The position numbers and the translations under genes are program-made. The notes under the pieces are model-generated. The model was given only the letters and a program-made list of their open reading frames with translations. It ran no database searches and had not been told where the DNA came from. This document shows positions 17,065-26,083 of a stretch of DNA of 64,000 nucleotides, piece after piece; within the stretch, counting starts at the first letter, position 1; each line of letters opens with the position of its first letter. Origin of the DNA: Candidatus Marinacidobacterales bacterium (GTDB lineage Bacteria; Acidobacteriota; Vicinamibacteria; Marinacidobacterales; DATDRI01); assembly GCA_965226495.1 (NCBI GenBank), contig OZ245365.1:3264001-3328000 (forward strand), given 5' to 3'.

Positions 17065-17320
17065 ATGAGGTTGATCGTATCCATTTCTTTTTTCCTTCTC
17101 TCTTCCACCACGCTGTGTGCCCAATTTTTCGAACCTGAAGTCTATGAGACGCGACGCGAGGCGGTGCTGGAGAATTTGGGCGAGGCGATCGCGATCGTTC
17201 CTGGTTACTCCGGGGCGCTGGGCATGGGTGTCTACCGACAGTCGGCCCACCTCATTTACTTGGCAGGTGTGGAAACTCCCAACGCCTATTTGGTCCTGGA
17301 CGGTCGCTCGAAACGGTACT
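17065..17320 (+). pseudogene. 5' fragment of a secreted Xaa-Pro aminopeptidase (AMP_N domain), truncated
   Basis: GGAGG RBS, signal peptide, EVYETRRE...YRQSAHLIYLAGVETPNAYLVLDG, then the sequence switches to transposase. Confidence 0.65.
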
Positions 17321-18048
17321 TCGTTGCCCCTCAGCCTGTCTCGCATTCACTGGACACCGGGCGCAAAAACGCTTTTCTACGAAGCGAAAGGCTCACATGA
17401 CGACCCCCTCGCTTCTCATCCGCGAGGCGAGGCCCTCGATGTCTTCGAGTTCCTGGCCCGAGTCCTCACGCAAATCCCCAAGCCTCGGCAACACGGCGTG
17501 CACTACATGGGCGCCTACTCCTCGAGAGCGCGCGCCTTTCGAAAAAGGAAAAACCGCCGCCTGCAATCACTCACCAGCCAACAAAACCCCAAAGCCAACT
17601 CTGAGCCGAACCTGTCTCCCAAAAAGCGTGCCGCGCTCAGAAAAAGATGGGCACAGCTCATCAAGCTCATCAGGCGCGTTCATCAGACCGACCCTCTCCG
17701 GTGCGACTGCGGAGGCACCTATCGCGTCATCGCCTTCATCACCGAGCAGAAGGTGATTCGGAAAATCTTGGCTCATCTCGAAAAAAGAAGAAGAAAAAGC
17801 GACTCGCACCCGCCACCCGAGCCCTAGTCACTGGCTTCACACCACGCCACTTGTCCGTTACCCCGACACCAGACGGCCGGAGTGTTTCTTCAACACCTAA
17901 CTCCCCCGGCGGGAGACACTTCTCAACCGCCTTGCCCCGTTTGCTCGAGTTCTGCTACCCTCACCAGGACTCACTCGGACTGCACAGACCCATTCTGGTG
18001 GGGAAAACTCGCGGGCCGGCGCTCGGGAGCGTATGAATTTTCCTATCC
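17320..18048 (+). mobile_element. IS91/ISCR-family remnant: transposase 3' half (to 17827) plus oriIS-like end
   Basis: PLSLSRI, FEFLARVLTQIP.PRQH.VHYMGAYS, WAQLI..V...DPLRCDCGG...IAFIT...IRKILAHL. Terminus GCGTATGAATTTTCCTATCC at ~18029-18048. The left junction is approximate. Confidence 0.75.
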
Positions 18049-18119: not shown

Positions 18120-19478
18120 TCACTGGCGCTCGCTCACTCCGGTTGCCTCAATCGGTAGGGTAATTGTGAATTCGGTGCCCTTTCCCACCTGGCTGGCTAC
18201 TTCTATCTGGCCACGGTGTTTGTGCACAATGTGCCGAGCGGCCGTTAAGCCCAGGTTCGCTCCGACTCTAGAACCTTGGGATCGAAAGCCCAAATCGAAG
18301 AGGGTCCTCGCGTCTTCCGGCGACATGCCTTTTCCGGTATCTAAGATCTTAGACGTAGAGGGTCCTCGCGTCTTCCGGCGAACACTCTTCTCCTTCGTGA
18401 AAGTTCTAATTGTGACGCTGCCCCGCCATTCAACCGCCTGTATGGCAGTCATCAGTAAAGCCATGAAGACTTGGTTGAGCTCGCCGTGGTTACCATGAAT
18501 CTCCGGAATACAGCCATACTCTTTTACCAAACTTATTCCCTCCTTAATTTCGTTTTGAATTAAGGTTAGGGTACTTTCAATTCCTTCGTGAATGTTGGCC
18601 TTCTGGAATTCGCCTTCGTCCAATCTAGTAAAACTCTTCAAACTCTTTGCTATTCTGGCGATTCTGTCACTGGCAGATGAAGAAGTCTGACTATTTTCTT
18701 GGAGAATTCTAAGGCACTCTTGATAATCACGACTATTCTTGACTTCAGCAGGCGTTTCGCTATTTTCCAAAATCTGCTCCAACCTAGCGACAGAACGAAT
18801 TAACACGTCCGCATTACCCTTAATCACGCCAATAGGCGTATTGATTTCGTGAACAATGCCTGCGGTAAGCTGTCCGAGGGCCGCCATCTTCTCAGATTGA
18901 ACCAATTGAGCCTGGGCAGTTTGTAACTCGCTCTCCACTCGCTTGCGCTCCAGTTCAGCGGTGGCTCGTGCAGCGAAGATTTTGAAAATCGACAGGTCAC
19001 GATGTTCACCAGTCATGGGCTTATCATCTAACGTGGCCAAGTGGCCTAGCACATCGCCCGAAGAGTCGACTAGTGGTATCGCCAGATAGCTCTCCGCACC
19101 TAATTCGACGAGTGCTTCATCCTCCGGAAAAGCAGATTGCACATTTTCAGCATAGCGACAAATCTCGCCGCGCAACACTTTCTCGCAGGGTGTTCCAGCA
19201 AGATTGTAGCCATAGTTGTCCATAAAGCTATGGTCTTTCCAAAAGGCCAGTGTTCTGACTCTGGTTTTCACCTCCGTAAACTCGGAAATGAAGGCATAGC
19301 GTACGTGAAGCGCGCAGGCAAGATTTCGGACAAGCGAACGAAAAAAATCATCGCCCGTCAATGGAGCTGTACCTTCAATGATCGTGCGGAATATGTCATC
19401 CCGACTTGCTTGGGTTCTCTGCATCGCTGTCGGGCCCACAACACTCGATCCAAAGGACTGACTGACGCAATAGCTCAT
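18120..19478 (-). CDS. Cytoplasmic GAF-domain sensor histidine kinase
   Basis: GAF (FFRSLV...GTPCEKV...YLAIPL), QSEKMAALGQLTAGIVHEINTP H-box, LNQVF, DTGKG, G.GTEF. The start may be the ATG at 19424. Visibly more AT-rich than its flanks. Confidence 0.85.
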   Translation of the reverse strand: MSYCVSQSFGSSVVGPTAMQRTQASRDDIFRTIIEGTAPLTGDDFFRSLVRNLACALHVRYAFISEFTEVKTRVRTLAFWKDHSFMDNYGYNLAGTPCEKVLRGEICRYAENVQSAFPEDEALVELGAESYLAIPLVDSSGDVLGHLATLDDKPMTGEHRDLSIFKIFAARATAELERKRVESELQTAQAQLVQSEKMAALGQLTAGIVHEINTPIGVIKGNADVLIRSVARLEQILENSETPAEVKNSRDYQECLRILQENSQTSSSASDRIARIAKSLKSFTRLDEGEFQKANIHEGIESTLTLIQNEIKEGISLVKEYGCIPEIHGNHGELNQVFMALLMTAIQAVEWRGSVTIRTFTKEKSVRRKTRGPSTSKILDTGKGMSPEDARTLFDLGFRSQGSRVGANLGLTAARHIVHKHRGQIEVASQVGKGTEFTITLPIEATGVSERQ

Positions 19479-20326
19479 TGTAAGCTCCTTCTTCTAACGT
19501 CGTTTCTCAGAGAGTTTCGATCCGCCGTTCTAGGTTTCGGTGCCAACCGAGCCCGAGAGCCTCGGGGTCCTCGCGGGAGACAAGGTTGCTCGCTTGCGAC
19601 GCGCAGCTTTGCTGGCCCATCTGTCTCTTGATAGCGCTCGAGCGCGTTTCGAACCTTCGTGCGTCCCCGGTGGAGCAACACTTTTTGATTGGCCTCGGTC
19701 AGTCCAAGTACTTGACAGACCTCTTCCGCGGACCAGCCCTCGATATCCCGCAGGGTGACGACCTCGGCTTGTCGCGGGGGCATCGACTGAAGTTCCTTCC
19801 GGATCATCGTGATCGTTTCTGTCGACAAGAGACGATCTTCGGGCGTCTGTCTCCATCGGCGAGGCGGGGACATCCAGGCGTGTCGATCGTCTGAGAATCG
19901 CTCGGCTGCCGCCGCAAGATTGTCGGCAGGGTTCTCGATTTCACTCAGGGACGAAAACGGGACCGTCCGTCGTTCCCTCTTGGCTCTCGTTCGCGCGACA
20001 TTCATGAGAATCGAGAAGATCCAAGTTTTGAGTGAAGAGCGACCCTCGAAGCGCTCCAGGCCTCGAATCGCCGCGAGCCAAGTCTCCTGAACTACCTCTT
20101 CCGCCATCTCTCGATCAGAAAGGACCGATCTCGCGAGGCCAAGCATGGACGACGAGAGCCGCTCGAGCAAGACCTCGAACGCCCTCTCGTTGCCGGCCCG
20201 GAGTGCCTCTATGAAGTCCTTCTCTTGATGGTATCCGTCGGCGCTCTGCCCCCGCTGGAGAGGCCACAGGATGGTGGTCGGGCTCGTTGCAACCGTTTCC
20301 ATTTGCTGGGTCATGTGCTGGGTCAT
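19475..20326 (-). CDS. ECF RNA polymerase sigma factor
   Basis: AEEVVQETWL, FEGRSSLKTWIFSILMN and VVTLRDIEGWSAEEVC...VLLHRGR. AAGGAG RBS before the ATG at 20326. Carries a C-terminal tail of uncertain meaning. Confidence 0.9.
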   Translation of the reverse strand: MTQHMTQQMETVATSPTTILWPLQRGQSADGYHQEKDFIEALRAGNERAFEVLLERLSSSMLGLARSVLSDREMAEEVVQETWLAAIRGLERFEGRSSLKTWIFSILMNVARTRAKRERRTVPFSSLSEIENPADNLAAAAERFSDDRHAWMSPPRRWRQTPEDRLLSTETITMIRKELQSMPPRQAEVVTLRDIEGWSAEEVCQVLGLTEANQKVLLHRGRTKVRNALERYQETDGPAKLRVASEQPCLPRGPRGSRARLAPKPRTADRNSLRNDVRRRSLQ

Positions 20327-20485
20327 GGAATTTCTCCTTTCCTGGAAAGCAATTTGCCAGTGGCCCCTCTGGAACACCATGCCGAGCAGATCACGGGTGC
20401 GTCAAAGCGTCTTCACGATGCAAATAATTGATTCTTAAAGAGTTGGTGAGTTGGATCACGCAGAAAAGGGTGGGTTGCCCCAAGG

Positions 20486-20516
20486 AAAAAGGTCCCGCGC
20501 CTTTCGGCGGGGACCT
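20486..20516 (-). terminator. Intrinsic terminator after the cytochrome P460 gene
   Basis: GC hairpin AGGTCCCCGCC-GAAA-GGCG(C)GGGACCT followed by a T-tract on the minus strand. Confidence 0.6.
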
Positions 20517-20540
20517 CGAGGATGAGCGCCAAACCCTAAG

Positions 20541-21746
20541 CTATTTGGGCGGATACTCCGTCAAGACAAAGTCCTTGCCCGTGGAGTGGCAGCCGGAGCA
20601 GAGGGGAAGGCCGTTGCCAACCCCGACAATGTCACTGCTGTCTTCCGTGTTGGTCGTTTCGTACCAGAACCAACCCTGCCCTTGAGCGCTGTCTTCTTGG
20701 GTCTTGACCATCACCGCCCAGCCGAGAAGCTCGGAACCATCCTCGCTGTACATTTCCTTCACGATCGATGAGCCGGCCGGATGCGACGCATTTCCTGCCG
20801 CGAGGGAAGCGTCGATCTTGGCATCCAAGTAGACGCGAACCGGCCAGCTGAACTTGGCATGGGGTCCTCGGGAAGCGTGTTTCTCAGATTCTTGGCTCTC
20901 GAATGACCTGTATGAGCCAGCTTTGAGGAATTCGTGAAGCCTTTGGGCTTCGGTGGGCACGACCGAGTCCACGGTAGGTGTATCGGCTGTCGCTTTCATG
21001 GCCGACTCGGACGCGCCGAGCATCGTATCCGCCATGCGATCGTACGACTCGTCGCCGCTTCGCATCGCCGCGCCGCTGGGAGACGCTGAGGAAGGAGAGC
21101 CCAGAGAGCTCTGCCGCGGCCCCTTTGCGGCGCGCAGCACCGGATAGTACTGGGTAAAGACCCCATTATCCGCGGCAGCCGCTTCGTGGCAGGAGCTACA
21201 TGCCGCGGCTGGGAATTTCTCTGCGGTGTCCGCAAGCGGATAGCTATGGCCGAAGCTGAAGTAAGCCCAGTTCCCTGGCTCGTCGGGAAAACGGTTCGAG
21301 TCCTTGACAGCGGCCTCCAAACCGATGAACTCGCCCATGAAGTAGCCTCTACCGCTAGCGGCCGCCTTCGAGCCCACGCTGACGAGCTCCTTGACCAGGA
21401 CTGTCCCCTCCCGGAAATTTCCGGTTTCCATGTAGTGGTCGTAGCTCTCGGGATCGATATAGACGTTGTGGAAGTCCGGGAACGGCGCTTCGGGCGGATT
21501 CATGTCGTTGGGTGTCAGCGGCGTTCCGATGTACACCCACGTCCGGTAACCCGTGGGCCGGATGAGCCAACCCTGGCCATCGAAGTGGACCGGCGTTTCC
21601 TCCTGCGGTGGCTCGGCCGTCGCAAAGAGAGCAGGACTGAGGATGTAGCTCGATGCGAGAACCGTCAGCCCCATAACAACGGCCAGGCCCACAACCCTCG
21701 ATCCAAAGGACTGAATGACGCGATACTTCATTTGCATTTCGTTCAT
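20541..21746 (-). CDS. Tandem two-domain cytochrome P460-family protein (two CxxCH)
   Basis: Signal peptide. Domain 1: WVYIGTPLTPN..N, GTVLVKELVSVG, GYFMG..IGLEAAVKD, CSSCH, VFTQYYPVL. Ser-rich linker. Domain 2: GSSIVKEMY, AVMVK, GWFWYE, CSGCH. Confidence 0.88.
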   Translation of the reverse strand: MNEMQMKYRVIQSFGSRVVGLAVVMGLTVLASSYILSPALFATAEPPQEETPVHFDGQGWLIRPTGYRTWVYIGTPLTPNDMNPPEAPFPDFHNVYIDPESYDHYMETGNFREGTVLVKELVSVGSKAAASGRGYFMGEFIGLEAAVKDSNRFPDEPGNWAYFSFGHSYPLADTAEKFPAAACSSCHEAAAADNGVFTQYYPVLRAAKGPRQSSLGSPSSASPSGAAMRSGDESYDRMADTMLGASESAMKATADTPTVDSVVPTEAQRLHEFLKAGSYRSFESQESEKHASRGPHAKFSWPVRVYLDAKIDASLAAGNASHPAGSSIVKEMYSEDGSELLGWAVMVKTQEDSAQGQGWFWYETTNTEDSSDIVGVGNGLPLCSGCHSTGKDFVLTEYPPK

Positions 21747-22241: not shown

Positions 22242-24116
22242 ATGTCGACGTTTCAATCGTCCAACTCCATCCGATTTGGGAACTTTGAAGTCGATCCCCG
22301 CGCTGGAGAGCTAAGGAAGAACGGACGGCCGGTTAAGCTCCAGGAACAACCCCTCCAGCTCTTGCTCTTGCTTCTTGAGCATCCTGGCGAAGTCGTAACC
22401 CAGGAAGAAGCGCGAAATACTCTCTGGAGAGAGGATACTTTCGTCGACTTTGAACATGGTCTCGGCGCCGCACTGAACCGTTTGCGCGCCGCCCTGGGTG
22501 ACTCCGCGAGTAATCCTCGTTTCATCGAAACGCTGCCTCGCCACGGATATCGGTTCATCGCGCCCGTAGCGGCAGGCTCGCCGAACGAACCGGAATCCGT
22601 GGCGGTGAGTCCGCCGACGAAACCTGTCGCCTTTAGATATGGCGGCTGGGTGGTCGCTTTCGGGGCGTTGATGCTCTCGATCTATCTGCTGAGAGAGCGT
22701 GTTCCGGCACCAACAAGCGCCGGCGCGGACACGAATATGCTCGTCGTGCTTCCCTTCGACAACTTGAGCGGCGACCCGGAGCAAGAGTATTTCAGCGACG
22801 GCCTGACCGAGGAGATCATCACCCACGTGGGCCAACTTAGCTTTGAACGACTCGGCGTCATTGCCCGCACGTCGAGCATGACATACAAGAACACGACACA
22901 GACGATCGAGCAGATAGGGCAGGATCTCGGCGTGAACTACGTGCTCGAGGGAAGTGTGCGGCGTGAGGGCGGACGCGTCCGGATTACCGCCCAGCTCATC
23001 TCCGTGAGCGATCAAACCCATGTTTGGGCAGAGAGCTACGACCGCGAGCTCCAAGGGATTCTTGCCTTGCAAAGCGACGTTTCCCGGCAGGTCGCCAAGG
23101 CCGTGGCCGGCGAGCTTGGGCTTGCGAACGACCCGGTGGTTGCCCCAGAACTGGCGCACACGGACGCTTATGACGCGTACCTCAAAGGTCGTTTCTACTG
23201 GAACAAGCGCGATGCCCAGGGCTTCCAGAAAGCCATCGAGTACTTCCAAGAGGCCATCGACATCGACCCGCGTTTCGCGCCTGCATACGCGGGGCTGGCT
23301 GACTGCTACGCGCTGCTAAGCGTCTCCTTTGACCTGCTACCTCCGGGAGAGGCGCAGTCCAAAGCGAGGACGATGGCCAGAAAAGCACTGGAAATCGACC
23401 CCAACCTGGCCGAAGCCTATGCTTCCCTGGGACTCGTACGGCACGGTTACGATTGGGACTGGGCGGGCGCATCCGAAGCGTTCCAGCGCGCCATCGAACT
23501 CAACCCAAGCTATGCGACCGCATACCACTGGCACGCACTTCATCTGGCAGGCATGGGTCGGTTCGAGCAAGCGCTCGATGAAATGAGACGAGCCCGGGCT
23601 CTGGATCCTCTCTCTCTGATCATCAACACTGACCTAGGGAGGGTGCTCTATACCGCGCGCCGGTACGACGAGGCCACAAAACAGTTGCAAGAAACCCTGG
23701 GTTTGGACCCGCACTTCGTGCCGGCGCGCATCTGGCTGTCTAGCGTATACCTGCAGAGAAAAATGTTCGAAGAGGCCATCGAAGTCTCCCGGACGGTAGC
23801 TACCATCGAGAACGGTGGACCGACGGCACTCGCCCTGCTCGGCGCCAGTTATGCCGCGGCGGGAAAGACAACCGACGCCATGGAAATTCTCCAGACGCTA
23901 AAACAGTTGTCCAACCAGCGCCACGTGTCACCAGCAAGCATCGCGCTCGTGTACGCGAACCTTGGCGACCCCGATGAGGCGTTTGCCTGGCTGGAGAAGG
24001 CTTTCGGGCAACGTTCCGGCTCCCTCCGACTGCTCAAGGTGGATCCCGTATTCGATCCCCTTCGCTCCGATCCGCGTTTTCAGGGTCTGCTTACACGCAT
24101 GAACTTCCCGGAGTGA
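22242..24116 (+). CDS. CadC-like winged-helix / TM / TolB-like / TPR regulator
   Basis: FGNFEVD...LRAALGDSASNPRFIETLPRHGYRF, TM helix, VLPFDNLSGDPEQEYFSDGLTEE, TPRs and DPLRSDPRF. Confidence 0.88.
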   Translation: MSTFQSSNSIRFGNFEVDPRAGELRKNGRPVKLQEQPLQLLLLLLEHPGEVVTQEEARNTLWREDTFVDFEHGLGAALNRLRAALGDSASNPRFIETLPRHGYRFIAPVAAGSPNEPESVAVSPPTKPVAFRYGGWVVAFGALMLSIYLLRERVPAPTSAGADTNMLVVLPFDNLSGDPEQEYFSDGLTEEIITHVGQLSFERLGVIARTSSMTYKNTTQTIEQIGQDLGVNYVLEGSVRREGGRVRITAQLISVSDQTHVWAESYDRELQGILALQSDVSRQVAKAVAGELGLANDPVVAPELAHTDAYDAYLKGRFYWNKRDAQGFQKAIEYFQEAIDIDPRFAPAYAGLADCYALLSVSFDLLPPGEAQSKARTMARKALEIDPNLAEAYASLGLVRHGYDWDWAGASEAFQRAIELNPSYATAYHWHALHLAGMGRFEQALDEMRRARALDPLSLIINTDLGRVLYTARRYDEATKQLQETLGLDPHFVPARIWLSSVYLQRKMFEEAIEVSRTVATIENGGPTALALLGASYAAAGKTTDAMEILQTLKQLSNQRHVSPASIALVYANLGDPDEAFAWLEKAFGQRSGSLRLLKVDPVFDPLRSDPRFQGLLTRMNFPE

Positions 24117-24190: not shown

Positions 24191-24727
24191 CTAGCTCTCT
24201 TCCACGATATCCGGCTTCAGGGTGCCAATGATCTCGAGAAGCTCTGATTTCTCGGCGGCAGGAACTTTGAATTTATCCAAGGTGTCAACCAAGTGTTGCA
24301 CCACGATGTTGAATTCCTTTTCAGTGATGCCGAGTCCACCATGAATGGTCTTGGCTGGCCGGCTGATGATCTTGCAGGGGCCCCCGGTGACGTTGCAGAC
24401 CAAATTCTTGTTCTTCTGCCTGAACTGCTGCCTTGTATCATCGCCCATGCCCCTGAAAAACTGGGCAATGCGAGGATCAACAAACAACTTTCCCGCGAAG
24501 TCGTCGACCACGGCAGAAATCGCATCGTACCCGCCGAGCCGCTCGTATAACGATTTTCCCTCATCTGATTCATCTGGAGCCGACGAGCTCTCGACCGCAG
24601 ACTCCAACAATGGGAGGCTGCCTTCGACAAGCGACGGCGGAGTCACAAGCAATACGGTTGCTAAGAAGAGCCCCTCACCCAGAAGAAAACTCCTCGTTCT
24701 TCTCCAATTTCCTATTGCAAACATCAC
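24191..24727 (-). CDS. Group I truncated hemoglobin with N-terminal export-like leader
   Basis: SLYERLGGYDAISAVVDDF, DPRIAQFF, TGGP, proximal H in KTIHGGLGIT..EF. Hydrophobic leader. Confidence 0.88.
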   Translation of the reverse strand: MMFAIGNWRRTRSFLLGEGLFLATVLLVTPPSLVEGSLPLLESAVESSSAPDESDEGKSLYERLGGYDAISAVVDDFAGKLFVDPRIAQFFRGMGDDTRQQFRQKNKNLVCNVTGGPCKIISRPAKTIHGGLGITEKEFNIVVQHLVDTLDKFKVPAAEKSELLEIIGTLKPDIVEES

Positions 24728-24874: not shown

Positions 24875-26083
24875 ATGCCGGAAATGAAAGGAAAAGAGCT
24901 TCGACTGCTTGGCGCAAGCTACTGTACGGCGCCGGTCGAGGTGAGGGAGTCTCTCGGCCACTTCGTCGCCGAGACTAAAGCGCGCTTGCTGCCGAACGAA
25001 CCAGAAGAGTTGGAGCTCGTCGTCCTTTCTACCTGCAATCGCATTGAGATTTACACTTGGGCCCCGATACAGGCTGACTACCTGGACCAATGGTTTCGAC
25101 AGATTGCCGATAGCATTCGGCCCGGCGGCGCCTTTTCGAACGAAACGCTATATCACCATCGAGGCGAGTCAGCGGCGCGGCATCTGTTCCGAGTCGCTTG
25201 CGGGCTGGACTCGGCGGTCCTGGGTGATGTGCAGATACTGTCGCAGATCAAGCAGGCCCGGACGGCCGCGAAGGAGGCGCGAAGGCTTGGCATCTTCCTG
25301 GAACAGATCTTTCGGGTGGCCATCCAAGCGGGAAAACGGGCAAGACACGAAACCGAGATCGGGTATGGTGCGGCCAGCGTGGGTTCCGCCCTCGCCAGCA
25401 TGCTCCGCCACCGCTCGAACTCCGGTTCTTTTCGCATCCTCCTTATCGGAGCCGGTAACGCCGCTCGCAACATTGGTCTGCACCTTGCCAAATCCGAGCT
25501 AGGCTCCATTGTATGCATCAACCGCACCCGCCACAAAGCGAACGAGCTTGCCCTTCAGTTGGGGGGAAAGTCCCGGGCCTGGGACGAGCTCGAACCAGCG
25601 TTGCTCGAAAGCGACCTTGTCATTGCCGCGACATCGGCCGCCGAGCCCGTCCTTCAGAAAAACGACCTTGAGGAATTAGCCCGCCGGCGGCGCGGCGCGC
25701 CCATTTTGATCGTCGACGCTGGCCTTCCCAGAAATGTGGAACCTGGCTCTCCTTTGGACGTGATTGGGATCGATGAAGTCCGTGAGCGGCAGGAACAGGT
25801 TATGGCAAGGCGTCGGGCTTCGGTGCCATCGGTGGAGCGAATCGTTCAGGACGCGGTCGAGGAGTGGCGACACTGGGTTGTTTCTAGGCCCATAGAGGAA
25901 ATCGTTCGATCCCTGTTTCAAGAAGTGCCCAGCTACACAAGACAGGCGGCAGCCAGCCTCGTCGACGGCAAAGTACTGACGCCGGAAAAAGCAGAACGAA
26001 TCCTCGAGAAGTCTGTTCGGCAACTCCTCCATGACCACGTCCGCCGCCTGCGCACCCTCGCCGTCCCGGGCCAGTCGCACTAA
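24875..26083 (+). CDS. hemA: Glutamyl-tRNA reductase (divergent, stand-alone)
   Basis: TAPVEVRE, LSTCNRIE catalytic Cys, HLFRVACGLDS.VLGD.QIL.Q, GKRARHET.I, IGAG, NRT and D..LPRNVE. Confidence 0.88.
   Translation: MPEMKGKELRLLGASYCTAPVEVRESLGHFVAETKARLLPNEPEELELVVLSTCNRIEIYTWAPIQADYLDQWFRQIADSIRPGGAFSNETLYHHRGESAARHLFRVACGLDSAVLGDVQILSQIKQARTAAKEARRLGIFLEQIFRVAIQAGKRARHETEIGYGAASVGSALASMLRHRSNSGSFRILLIGAGNAARNIGLHLAKSELGSIVCINRTRHKANELALQLGGKSRAWDELEPALLESDLVIAATSAAEPVLQKNDLEELARRRRGAPILIVDAGLPRNVEPGSPLDVIGIDEVRERQEQVMARRRASVPSVERIVQDAVEEWRHWVVSRPIEEIVRSLFQEVPSYTRQAAASLVDGKVLTPEKAERILEKSVRQLLHDHVRRLRTLAVPGQSH

Follow-up and report, generated by a model that had tools for sequence, protein, structure and literature searches.

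A gene in a 64,000-nucleotide stretch of the genome of Candidatus Marinacidobacterales bacterium (Acidobacteriota; contig OZ245365.1, positions 3,264,001 to 3,328,000; hereafter, the window) encodes a 401-amino-acid protein in which a canonical cytochrome P460 domain (D1) is followed, in the same chain, by a second, dissimilar domain of the P460/c'-beta fold (D2). Cytochrome P460 belongs to a small set of enzymes for which direct N2O production from hydroxylamine (NH2OH) has been demonstrated, and work on it has dealt with the single-domain proteins of nitrifiers and methanotrophs. We read the fused protein as an exported two-haem protein in which D1 would oxidize NH2OH and D2 would bind a ligand, as part of a periplasmic module against NH2OH and nitric oxide (NO) stress in a non-nitrifier, and give this reading a probability of about 60%. 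The architecture, fold, residue conservation, distribution and gene neighbourhood on which it draws are matters of observation.

The fusion is not an artefact. The open reading frame (ORF) proposed in the original prediction was found, open for 401 codons from an ATG start, and its translation contains every motif quoted there; VKELVSVG lies at residues 118–125, IGLEAAVKD at 141–149, CSSCH at 183–187, IVKEMY at 328–333 and CSGCH at 383–387. The gene was compared with contigs of four other sequencing runs from four studies (one near-identical run may itself be the source of the window DNA). One contig (X6) spans 20400–21671 with one substitution and no gap, and two others (X8 and X9) bridge the region between the domains (20646–21146) with zero differences. 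Homologues likewise support the fusion. A word-indexed search gave 885 homologous proteins at E ≤ 0.001 among 6133 candidates of 220–702 amino acids, and 60 homologues with 57–79% identity align end to end with the full D1–D2 architecture. Invariant in these 60 are K119, E120, E144, C183, C186, H187, K330, E331, M332, A344, K348, C383 and C386, and H387 is nearly so.

The two domains

PF16694 (Cytochrome_P460) matched the whole protein in two stretches (E = 2.1e-33), and no NCBIfam family scored above its cut-off, the scan returning just weak CxxCH-motif models. The hydrophobic helix at the N terminus (Table 1) is presumably an export signal or anchor; similar hydrophobic N termini were seen in the alignment of the 60 homologues. 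D1 extends over residues ~50–210 in all. The linker that follows contains residues with a predicted local distance difference test score (pLDDT) below 50 (210–228) and one helix (233–249) in the full-length model, and its M228 and M242 are nearly invariant in the 60 homologues.

Every sequence criterion tested marks D1 as a canonical, catalytic-type P460. The N-terminal 214 residues, scanned alone, scored 96.8 bits against PF16694 (cut-off, 27) over residues 64–198 and profile positions 1–125 of 125, and the search of the whole genome gave its match at the same place. The best PDB sequence match was the P460 of Nitrosomonas europaea (NeP460, or CytL; 2JE2/2JE3 and 8GAR), with 167 residues aligned (2je2, E = 1.8e-56, query residues 54–220), and all 12 PDB chains matched were P460 or c'-beta. 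The determinants of NH2OH oxidation are a Lys cross-link, a distal carboxylate and a capping residue, given for NeP460 as Lys70, Glu96 and a presumed Phe cap (Adams et al. 2025, Table 2; PMC11928373). In the alignment with 2je2, K119 of D1 falls on chain position 71, the Lys of VKELVSVG, and E144 on chain position 97, the Glu of IGLEASVKD. Given that the Arg44 named in the title of 8gar stands at chain position 45, the chain index runs one ahead, so that K119 corresponds to Lys70 and E144 to Glu96; F89 falls on the position of the presumed capping Phe. Across 158 D1-type domains from 122 proteins, K119, F89 and CxxCH were each present in 158/158, and E144 was Glu in 157/158 and Asp in one. With all published determinants (K119, E144 and F89) kept, D1 is expected to be catalytic. 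It further shares with NeP460 the CxxCH motif (C183-S-S-C186-H187, near the C terminus of the domain), a long loop between strands 3 and 4 (17 residues, 123–139, by DSSP on the model) and the C-terminal helix. It differs in having H93 where NeP460 has Arg44, a position that is also His in the P460 of Nitrosomonas sp. AL212 (NsP460) in the alignments. NeP460 is a single-domain protein of a nitrifier, whereas D1 continues into a linker and a further haem domain, and the genome that encodes it gave no match to ammonia monooxygenase (AMO).

The model of D2 places it in the P460/c'-beta superfamily fold, a five-stranded beta-sheet that is unique to this superfamily. Modelled alone (residues 253–401, alignment of 74 sequences), D2 gave a pLDDT of 93.3 and a predicted template modelling score (pTM) of 0.89, and Foldseek returned 19 PDB matches at E ≤ 0.001. 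The 20 rows listed among ranks 1–24 were all P460 or c'-beta (E = 9.3e-5 to 1.2e-2; template modelling (TM) scores of 0.46–0.62), and the next row after this block stood at E = 0.29. VIA-align gave the same picture, with 17 P460/c'-beta entries at Z = 9.0–11.5 (root mean square deviation 2.8–4.0 Å over 120–129 residues) and the next entry at Z = 4.2. In the ESM Atlas, 28 of the 30 clusters nearest to D2 carry PF16694. The loop between strands 3 and 4 has six residues in D2 (334–339, by DSSP on the model), which lacks the long loop that would reach a partner. According to the 2025 review, each of the three P460s of known structure extends this loop to the haem of the partner subunit, and the c'-beta structures of Methylococcus capsulatus and Thermus thermophilus have a short one (PMC11928373).

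Profile alignment fixed the equivalence of residues. Broad profiles of 158 D1-type and 147 D2-type domains aligned in hhalign with a probability of 96.2% (E = 2.2e-9, 122 columns), pairing GTVLVKEL with GSSIVKEM and IGLEAAVKD with LGWAVMVKT, and thus K119 with K330 and E144 with A344. The strand register agrees in the models (D1 116–122 and 140–148; D2 327–333 and 340–348, by DSSP). A narrower pair of profiles (61 close homologues; probability 70%, E = 3.9e-5) had misplaced a gap past the Lys strand and was superseded by the broad ones. As a check on residue equivalence alone, a profile of 74 mostly standalone D2-type proteins was aligned with T. thermophilus c'-beta (7ead), and this alignment, itself weak (E = 0.2), put K330 on Phe61 and A344 on Gly82, the residues that Table 2 of the review equates with Lys70 and Glu96 (PMC11928373). 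D2 therefore has a Lys at the cross-link position (K330) and lacks the distal carboxylate (A344).

This pattern is general among D2-type domains. Over 154 such domains from 149 cluster representatives, K330 was conserved in 145/153, E331 in 152/153 and K348 in 151/154, and position 344 was Ala in 128/154, Ser in 18 and Val in four. Polar residues are conserved in number: H290 (129/146), H296 (139/146, in a conserved Gly-Pro-His loop), H322 (138/152), E363 (144/153), D392 (148/151) and K348, with CxxCH present in 151–152/152. The conservation of Lys at the cross-link position makes a second P460-type cross-linked haem in D2 likely.

Judged by its sequences, D2 forms a large subfamily of its own whose members mostly stand alone. 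In an exhaustive phmmer search, D2 matched 835 cluster representatives at E ≤ 0.001, of which 468 reached E ≤ 1e-10 and 22 reached E ≤ 1e-30. The best 149 are mostly standalone proteins of 140–230 amino acids with the domain C-terminal behind a leader; a few are D1–D2 fusions and four are D2–D2 tandems (P0123, P0128, P0190 and P0258). In one protein of 578 amino acids (P0173) the D2-type domain lies C-terminal to a lactonase-type beta-propeller, and in another of 677 (P0246) it lies at the C terminus of a chain that weakly matches a family of Cys-rich repeats. Six of seven single-domain D2-type proteins scanned with PF16694 scored 18–24 bits, under the cut-off, and one 31.8 bits; many D2-type proteins may therefore be unannotated. 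Occurrence is patchy, with a D2-type domain (E ≤ 1e-10) in 10 of 201 sampled Acidobacteriota genomes including the present one.

Comparison with characterized proteins places D2 between two known groups. NsP460 (6AMG) is its first Foldseek match, yet with ~20% identity; like D2 it keeps the Lys and has Ala at the carboxylate position, and unlike D2 it has the long inter-subunit loop. The His residues conserved in D2 have no counterpart at the aligned positions of D1 or NsP460. The top structural matches are c'-beta proteins (T. thermophilus 7EAD, M. capsulatus 6HIH and N. europaea 7S5O; Z = 11.5 to 9.2), which share with D2 a compact size, a short strand 3–4 loop and a small residue at the carboxylate position, but have Phe or Met where D2 has its conserved Lys and are standalone rather than fused. 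The P460 of M. capsulatus (McP460; 6HIU and 9HRK; Z = 10.1–10.6) is, like D2, compact with Lys at the cross-link position, and is the best PDB sequence match of the D2 profile, at a non-significant E = 0.083; where D2 has Ala, it has the carboxylate Asp102. The review describes McP460 as active, with a Lys cross-link, an Arg50 cap and no C-terminal helix (PMC11928373). D2 is thus a halfway form, a c'-beta-like scaffold with the P460 Lys. The original prediction of one chain with two dissimilar P460-fold haem domains, D1 of the Nitrosomonas type with its Lys and Glu and D2 divergent with its own Lys and CSGCH, agrees with PF16694, Foldseek, VIA-align and hhalign, and the model of D2 matched P460 and c'-beta alone.

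Distribution and architectures

The D1–D2 architecture is real and widespread in non-nitrifying bacteria, and no isolated curiosity. Relatives are encoded in 566 of 603 candidate stretches (one genome per species). For the best 80 loci and the window, ORFs were called mechanically and scored with hidden Markov models of D1 and D2; D1 and D2 shared one ORF in 54 of the 80 loci and in the window. D1–D2 was the commonest arrangement of the 81 (36, including the window), followed by D1 alone (16), D1–D2 then a separate D1 gene (11), D1 + D1 as separate genes (6), D1–D1–D2 in one chain (5) and D1 + D2 as separate ORFs (2). Single loci had D1–D2 then two separate D1 genes, D1–D2 + D2, D1–D2–D2 (414 amino acids, probably a split domain call), D1 + D1 + D1, and D1–D1. 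The two loci with separate D1 and D2 ORFs have them adjacent (L022) or 1.5 kb apart (L048). In 12 loci of marine Flavobacteriaceae (L003–L015 and L060) the fusion is accompanied by a separate D1-type gene ~30–50 bases further on. Forms of ~540 amino acids have two canonical P460 domains and then D2; in two such three-domain proteins (P0013 and P0017) the linker before D2 has a CxxC pair (C-K-E-C and C-E-H-C) that is not CxxCH and is absent from the window protein.

By record title, the carriers belong to at least eight phyla and include Acidobacteriota/Bryobacterales/Terriglobia, Gemmatimonadota, Planctomycetota, Flavobacteriaceae, Verrucomicrobiales, Alphaproteobacteria, Myxococcota, Latescibacterota, Krumholzibacteriota and Desulfobacterales. 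Isolates among them are Winogradskyella, Aquimarina and Leptobacterium (Flavobacteriaceae) and Roseibacillus (Verrucomicrobiales). Some family members are labelled 'cytochrome P460 family protein' in public records. In its own genome the window gene stands alone, with just two P460 matches, both within this ORF.

Gene neighbourhood and host genome

The features of the gene and its surroundings are collected in Table 1.

Table 1. Features of the P460 fusion gene and of its neighbourhood in the window
Feature	Position	Strand	Evidence or remark
Whole gene, predicted exported di-haem protein, D1–linker–D2 (including stop codon)	20541..21746	-	translation, PF16694, contigs of other runs
N-terminal leader, residues 1–~44, presumed Sec signal or anchor	21615..21746	-	helix at residues 15–35 (DSSP, model)
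D1, canonical cytochrome P460, residues 64–198 by Pfam	21153..21557	-	PF16694, 2je2 match
D1 key codons: K119; E144; CSSCH	21390-21392; 21315-21317; 21186-21200	-	
Inter-domain linker, residues ~210–262	20961..21119	-	Ser/Pro-rich low-confidence stretch and helix 233–249
D2, divergent P460/c'-beta-fold haem domain (modelled), residues 263–401	20544..20960	-	D2 model, structure searches, hhalign
D2 key codons: K330; A344; CSGCH	20757-20759; 20715-20717; 20586-20600	-	
Terminator-like hairpin with T-run, ~30 nt past the stop codon	20494..20511	-	
Extracytoplasmic function (ECF) sigma factor gene, directly downstream, same strand	19475..20380	-	Sigma70_r2/r4_2/ECF
Histidine kinase	18120..19478	-	HisKA and HATPase_c
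ORF of 236 amino acids, weak Y2-type transposase match	17117-17827	+	PF04986, E = 6.2e-4, below cut-off
zf-HC2 anti-sigma-like protein, divergent from the P460 gene	21835..22113	+	PF13490, E = 2.2e-10
Winged-helix (Trans_reg_C) and TPR regulator, between P460 and globin genes	22242..24116	+	
Truncated haemoglobin (Bac_globin), hydrophobic N-terminal leader, candidate partner	24191..24727	-	PF01152, E = 1.3e-10
Glutamyl-tRNA reductase (hemA), first step of haem synthesis, adjoins the globin gene	24875-26083	+	

With the zf-HC2 protein, the sigma factor would make up a sigma/anti-sigma pair. The end of the sigma factor gene overlaps the start of the kinase gene by four bases, which suggests translational coupling, and homologous kinases lie directly downstream of the P460 gene in three further loci (L002, L014 and L020). 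The sigma factor ORF is long, at 301 amino acids, with the sigma regions starting from near residue 55–72. For the terminator-like hairpin, one was found against 2.0 ± 1.3 expected in shuffled sequences, so that its position alone supports it. The transposase-like ORF may be a mobile-element remnant near the module, and Rfam gave no match at the gathering score over the window.

The truncated haemoglobin is a candidate functional partner of the P460 fusion. It is the one Bac_globin match in the 6.3-Mb genome and lies 2.4 kb from the sole P460 gene. It is of the group-I type, and its N-terminal extension of ~55 residues starts Arg-rich (WRRTRSFLL) and includes a hydrophobic segment. Truncated haemoglobins of group I act as NO dioxygenases, HbN of Mycobacterium tuberculosis being an example, and this role would fit a module that deals with NO formed from NH2OH. 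Globin homologues were found less than 6 kb from the P460 gene in 17 of the 80 best loci (15 assemblies), on the same strand in 16 of the 17 and directly adjacent in, for example, L001, L002, L026, L031, L035, L052 and L062; the copy in L026 and the downstream copy in L052 are Bac_globin by Pfam. Most upstream copies have hydrophobic leaders and therefore look exported. This suggests, from sequence, that the b-haem globin is exported, an unusual property if so. In four loci (L025, L032, L040 and L052) the downstream globin is of a second type without a leader. The regulator found between the P460 and globin genes of the window has counterparts divergently upstream of globin–P460 pairs in L001, L002, L014 and L034.

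Other genes recurring within the same distance encode ECF sigma factors (12 loci), histidine kinases (15 loci), the peptide methionine sulfoxide reductase MsrA (11 loci; for example, L036:3641-4384, minus strand), SnoaL-like proteins (12 loci), AraC regulators (13 loci; the cluster example comes from a Flavobacteriaceae locus) and Haem_bd proteins (7 loci). The recurrence of MsrA and SnoaL-like proteins hints at a theme of oxidative or nitrosative stress.

The host genome (6.3 Mb, 94.8% complete) has three matches over cut-off to the cytochrome c assembly family PF01578, which indicates that the host is able to make c-type cytochromes. The host was expected to be a non-nitrifier, and its genome agrees: it gave no match to AMO (PF02461) or the NosZ propeller (PF18764), searches in which the control genomes also gave none, and no match to NrfA (PF02335), for which two control genomes were positive. 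NirK (TIGR02376) stayed below its cut-off of 296.3 bits, at 30.3 bits; no search was made for HAO, Hcp or NorB.

Proposed function and its alternatives

In our reading, NH2OH would be oxidized to NO or N2O in the periplasm at the Lys-cross-linked haem of D1, as in N. europaea P460, with Glu144 serving as the proton relay. D2 would hold a second covalent c-haem, probably also Lys-cross-linked; with Ala344 it would not act by the D1 mechanism and would bind or process another small ligand, most simply the NO product or another N-oxide. The module would serve periplasmic detoxification or stress defence in a non-nitrifier, a role to which the globin, MsrA, ECF sigma factor and kinase neighbours point, together with the missing matches to AMO, NrfA, the NosZ propeller and, over cut-off, NirK.

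Several points weigh against this reading. Scanned alone (C-terminal 180 amino acids), D2 reached 22.9 bits in PF16694 (E = 1.2e-4, profile positions 24–121 of 125), below the cut-off of 27. Against PDB sequences D2 had no significant match; the four hits, to the Golgi protein GCP60 and a relative, were chance ones (E ≥ 0.72). The D2-family profile, which ranked P460/c'-beta chains first, did so at an E of just 0.08–0.37. NsP460, which has Lys106 and Ala131, is inactive towards NH2OH (PMC11928373), and by this precedent D2, with A344 in place of the carboxylate, is predicted to lack D1-type NH2OH oxidation. The known P460 haem potentials are very low, from −340 to −424 mV (PMC11928373), which would make a P460-type D2 a poor electron acceptor. 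No AMO match that would account for NH2OH was found in the host, in a search in which the control genomes gave none either. In the window, two opposite-strand genes split the globin and P460 genes, and the globin link is not specific to the fusion: 11 of the 17 globin loci have the fusion and six have single-domain D1 genes, and 63 of the 80 loci have no globin within 6 kb. A contig of another run (X2, depth 6.6) spans the whole stretch without one base at 20838, inside D2, which would shift the frame. We infer haem attachment, both cross-links, export, all catalytic activities and the role of D2. The base loss at 20838, absent from the contigs of the other three runs, is an assembly error or a rare variant.

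The original prediction suggested that the second haem may be an electron acceptor or a second active site. D2 could instead be an electron-transfer module, in which H296 or H322 would provide the sixth ligand of a low-spin haem that passes electrons from D1 to a periplasmic carrier. P460 has no known natural electron acceptor, H296, H322 and H290 are highly conserved in D2, and in every fusion D2 follows, towards the C terminus, one or two D1 domains of the catalytic type; H296, placed by consensus numbering, would sit in the loop that gives the distal capping residue in known members. A shuttle would have no need of the Lys at the cross-link position, which D2 keeps in 145/153, most D2-type proteins occur without any D1, and, according to the review, every member of the fold with a solved structure binds ligands at a five-coordinate haem (PMC11928373). 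We consider this role improbable, if worth keeping in view.

An equally improbable alternative, to our mind, is that D2 is a c'-beta-like NO binder without a cross-link that buffers or senses the NO made by D1, its Lys being kept for contact with a propionate or the ligand. The best Z scores of D2 are indeed with c'-beta proteins (7ead, 11.5; M. capsulatus, 10.8–11.2) rather than P460s (9.0–10.6), its loop of six residues, against 17 in D1, is of the short kind typical of c'-beta, and Ala or Gly at the carboxylate position is common to c'-beta (PMC11928373). On the other hand, the review gives Phe or Met, not Lys, for all three structurally characterized c'-beta proteins and reports that all three characterized P460s with Lys at this position form the cross-link (PMC11928373), and the conserved His, Glu, Lys and Asp residues of D2, if they line its pocket, would set it apart from the hydrophobic pockets described there for c'-beta.

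The original prediction was of a pseudo-heterodimer, in which D1 and D2 of a single chain would pack in the manner of the P460 homodimer; the D1 loop would then reach the haem of D2. Most solved family members are homodimers, and in P460s the strand 3–4 loop reaches the haem of the other subunit (PMC11928373); D1 keeps the long loop, and a linker of ~50 residues would be long enough. The full-length model (pLDDT 72.8) gave a pTM of 0.50, however, and thus no confidence in the packing or inter-domain geometry. A paired-complex prediction of D1 (50–212) against D2 (253–401) scored 0.02 and 0.01, where the mark is 0.32, and is counted neither for nor against binding. The D1–D1–D2 chains (5 loci), D1–D2 with a separate D1 gene (12 loci), D2–D2 tandems and the mostly standalone occurrence of D2 are explained at least equally well by D1:D1 and D2:D2 pairs or by independent modules, and argue that D2 is separable and not the obligate half of a pseudo-heterodimer. 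We do not favour such packing and regard it as improbable. That the fusion arose by assembly or gene calling from two genes can be dismissed: the separate D1 and D2 ORFs of two loci and the X2 base loss would favour it, but the unbroken frame of 401 codons, the gapless X6 contig, the unchanged linker in X8 and X9 and the architecture shared by 60 homologues leave it practically no room.

Our reading of the protein as a two-haem NH2OH/NO stress module bears on how the P460 family is understood. The 2025 review describes P460 sequences as proteobacterial, and the terms fusion, fused, tandem, multi-domain, two domains and diheme do not occur in its main text (PMC11928373). In the literature outside subscription journals we found no paper on tandem, multiple or di-heme P460 domains, and among titles and the starts of abstracts none on P460 domain fusions or a P460–truncated haemoglobin gene pair. 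P460 domains with the full catalytic equipment are frequent in several groups, among them Acidobacteriota, Gemmatimonadota, Planctomycetota and marine Flavobacteriaceae. In most cases they are linked there to another, dissimilar P460-fold haem domain, and in many to a truncated haemoglobin. D2 and the truncated haemoglobin are thus candidate answers to the question of the cellular partners of P460, and D2 itself represents a large subfamily of which we found no earlier study. The natural pairing of a P460-fold domain with the Glu and one without it in a single chain offers a handle for structure–function work, and the cultured carriers (Winogradskyella maritima, Aquimarina spp., Leptobacterium flavescens and Roseibacillus ishigakijimensis) give access to the physiology of non-nitrifiers. 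More speculatively, and with still lower odds than the alternatives to our reading of D2 just weighed, D2 could form a large class of Lys-cross-linked P460 proteins in which the histidine of the Gly-Pro-His loop takes the place of a carboxylate as distal base, with D1, D2 and the globin forming a self-contained, in-line periplasmic route from NH2OH through NO to a harmless product in bacteria that do not nitrify. If this were true, at least eight phyla would share proteins that make or remove NO and N2O in soils and oceans and have so far gone uncounted in this role.

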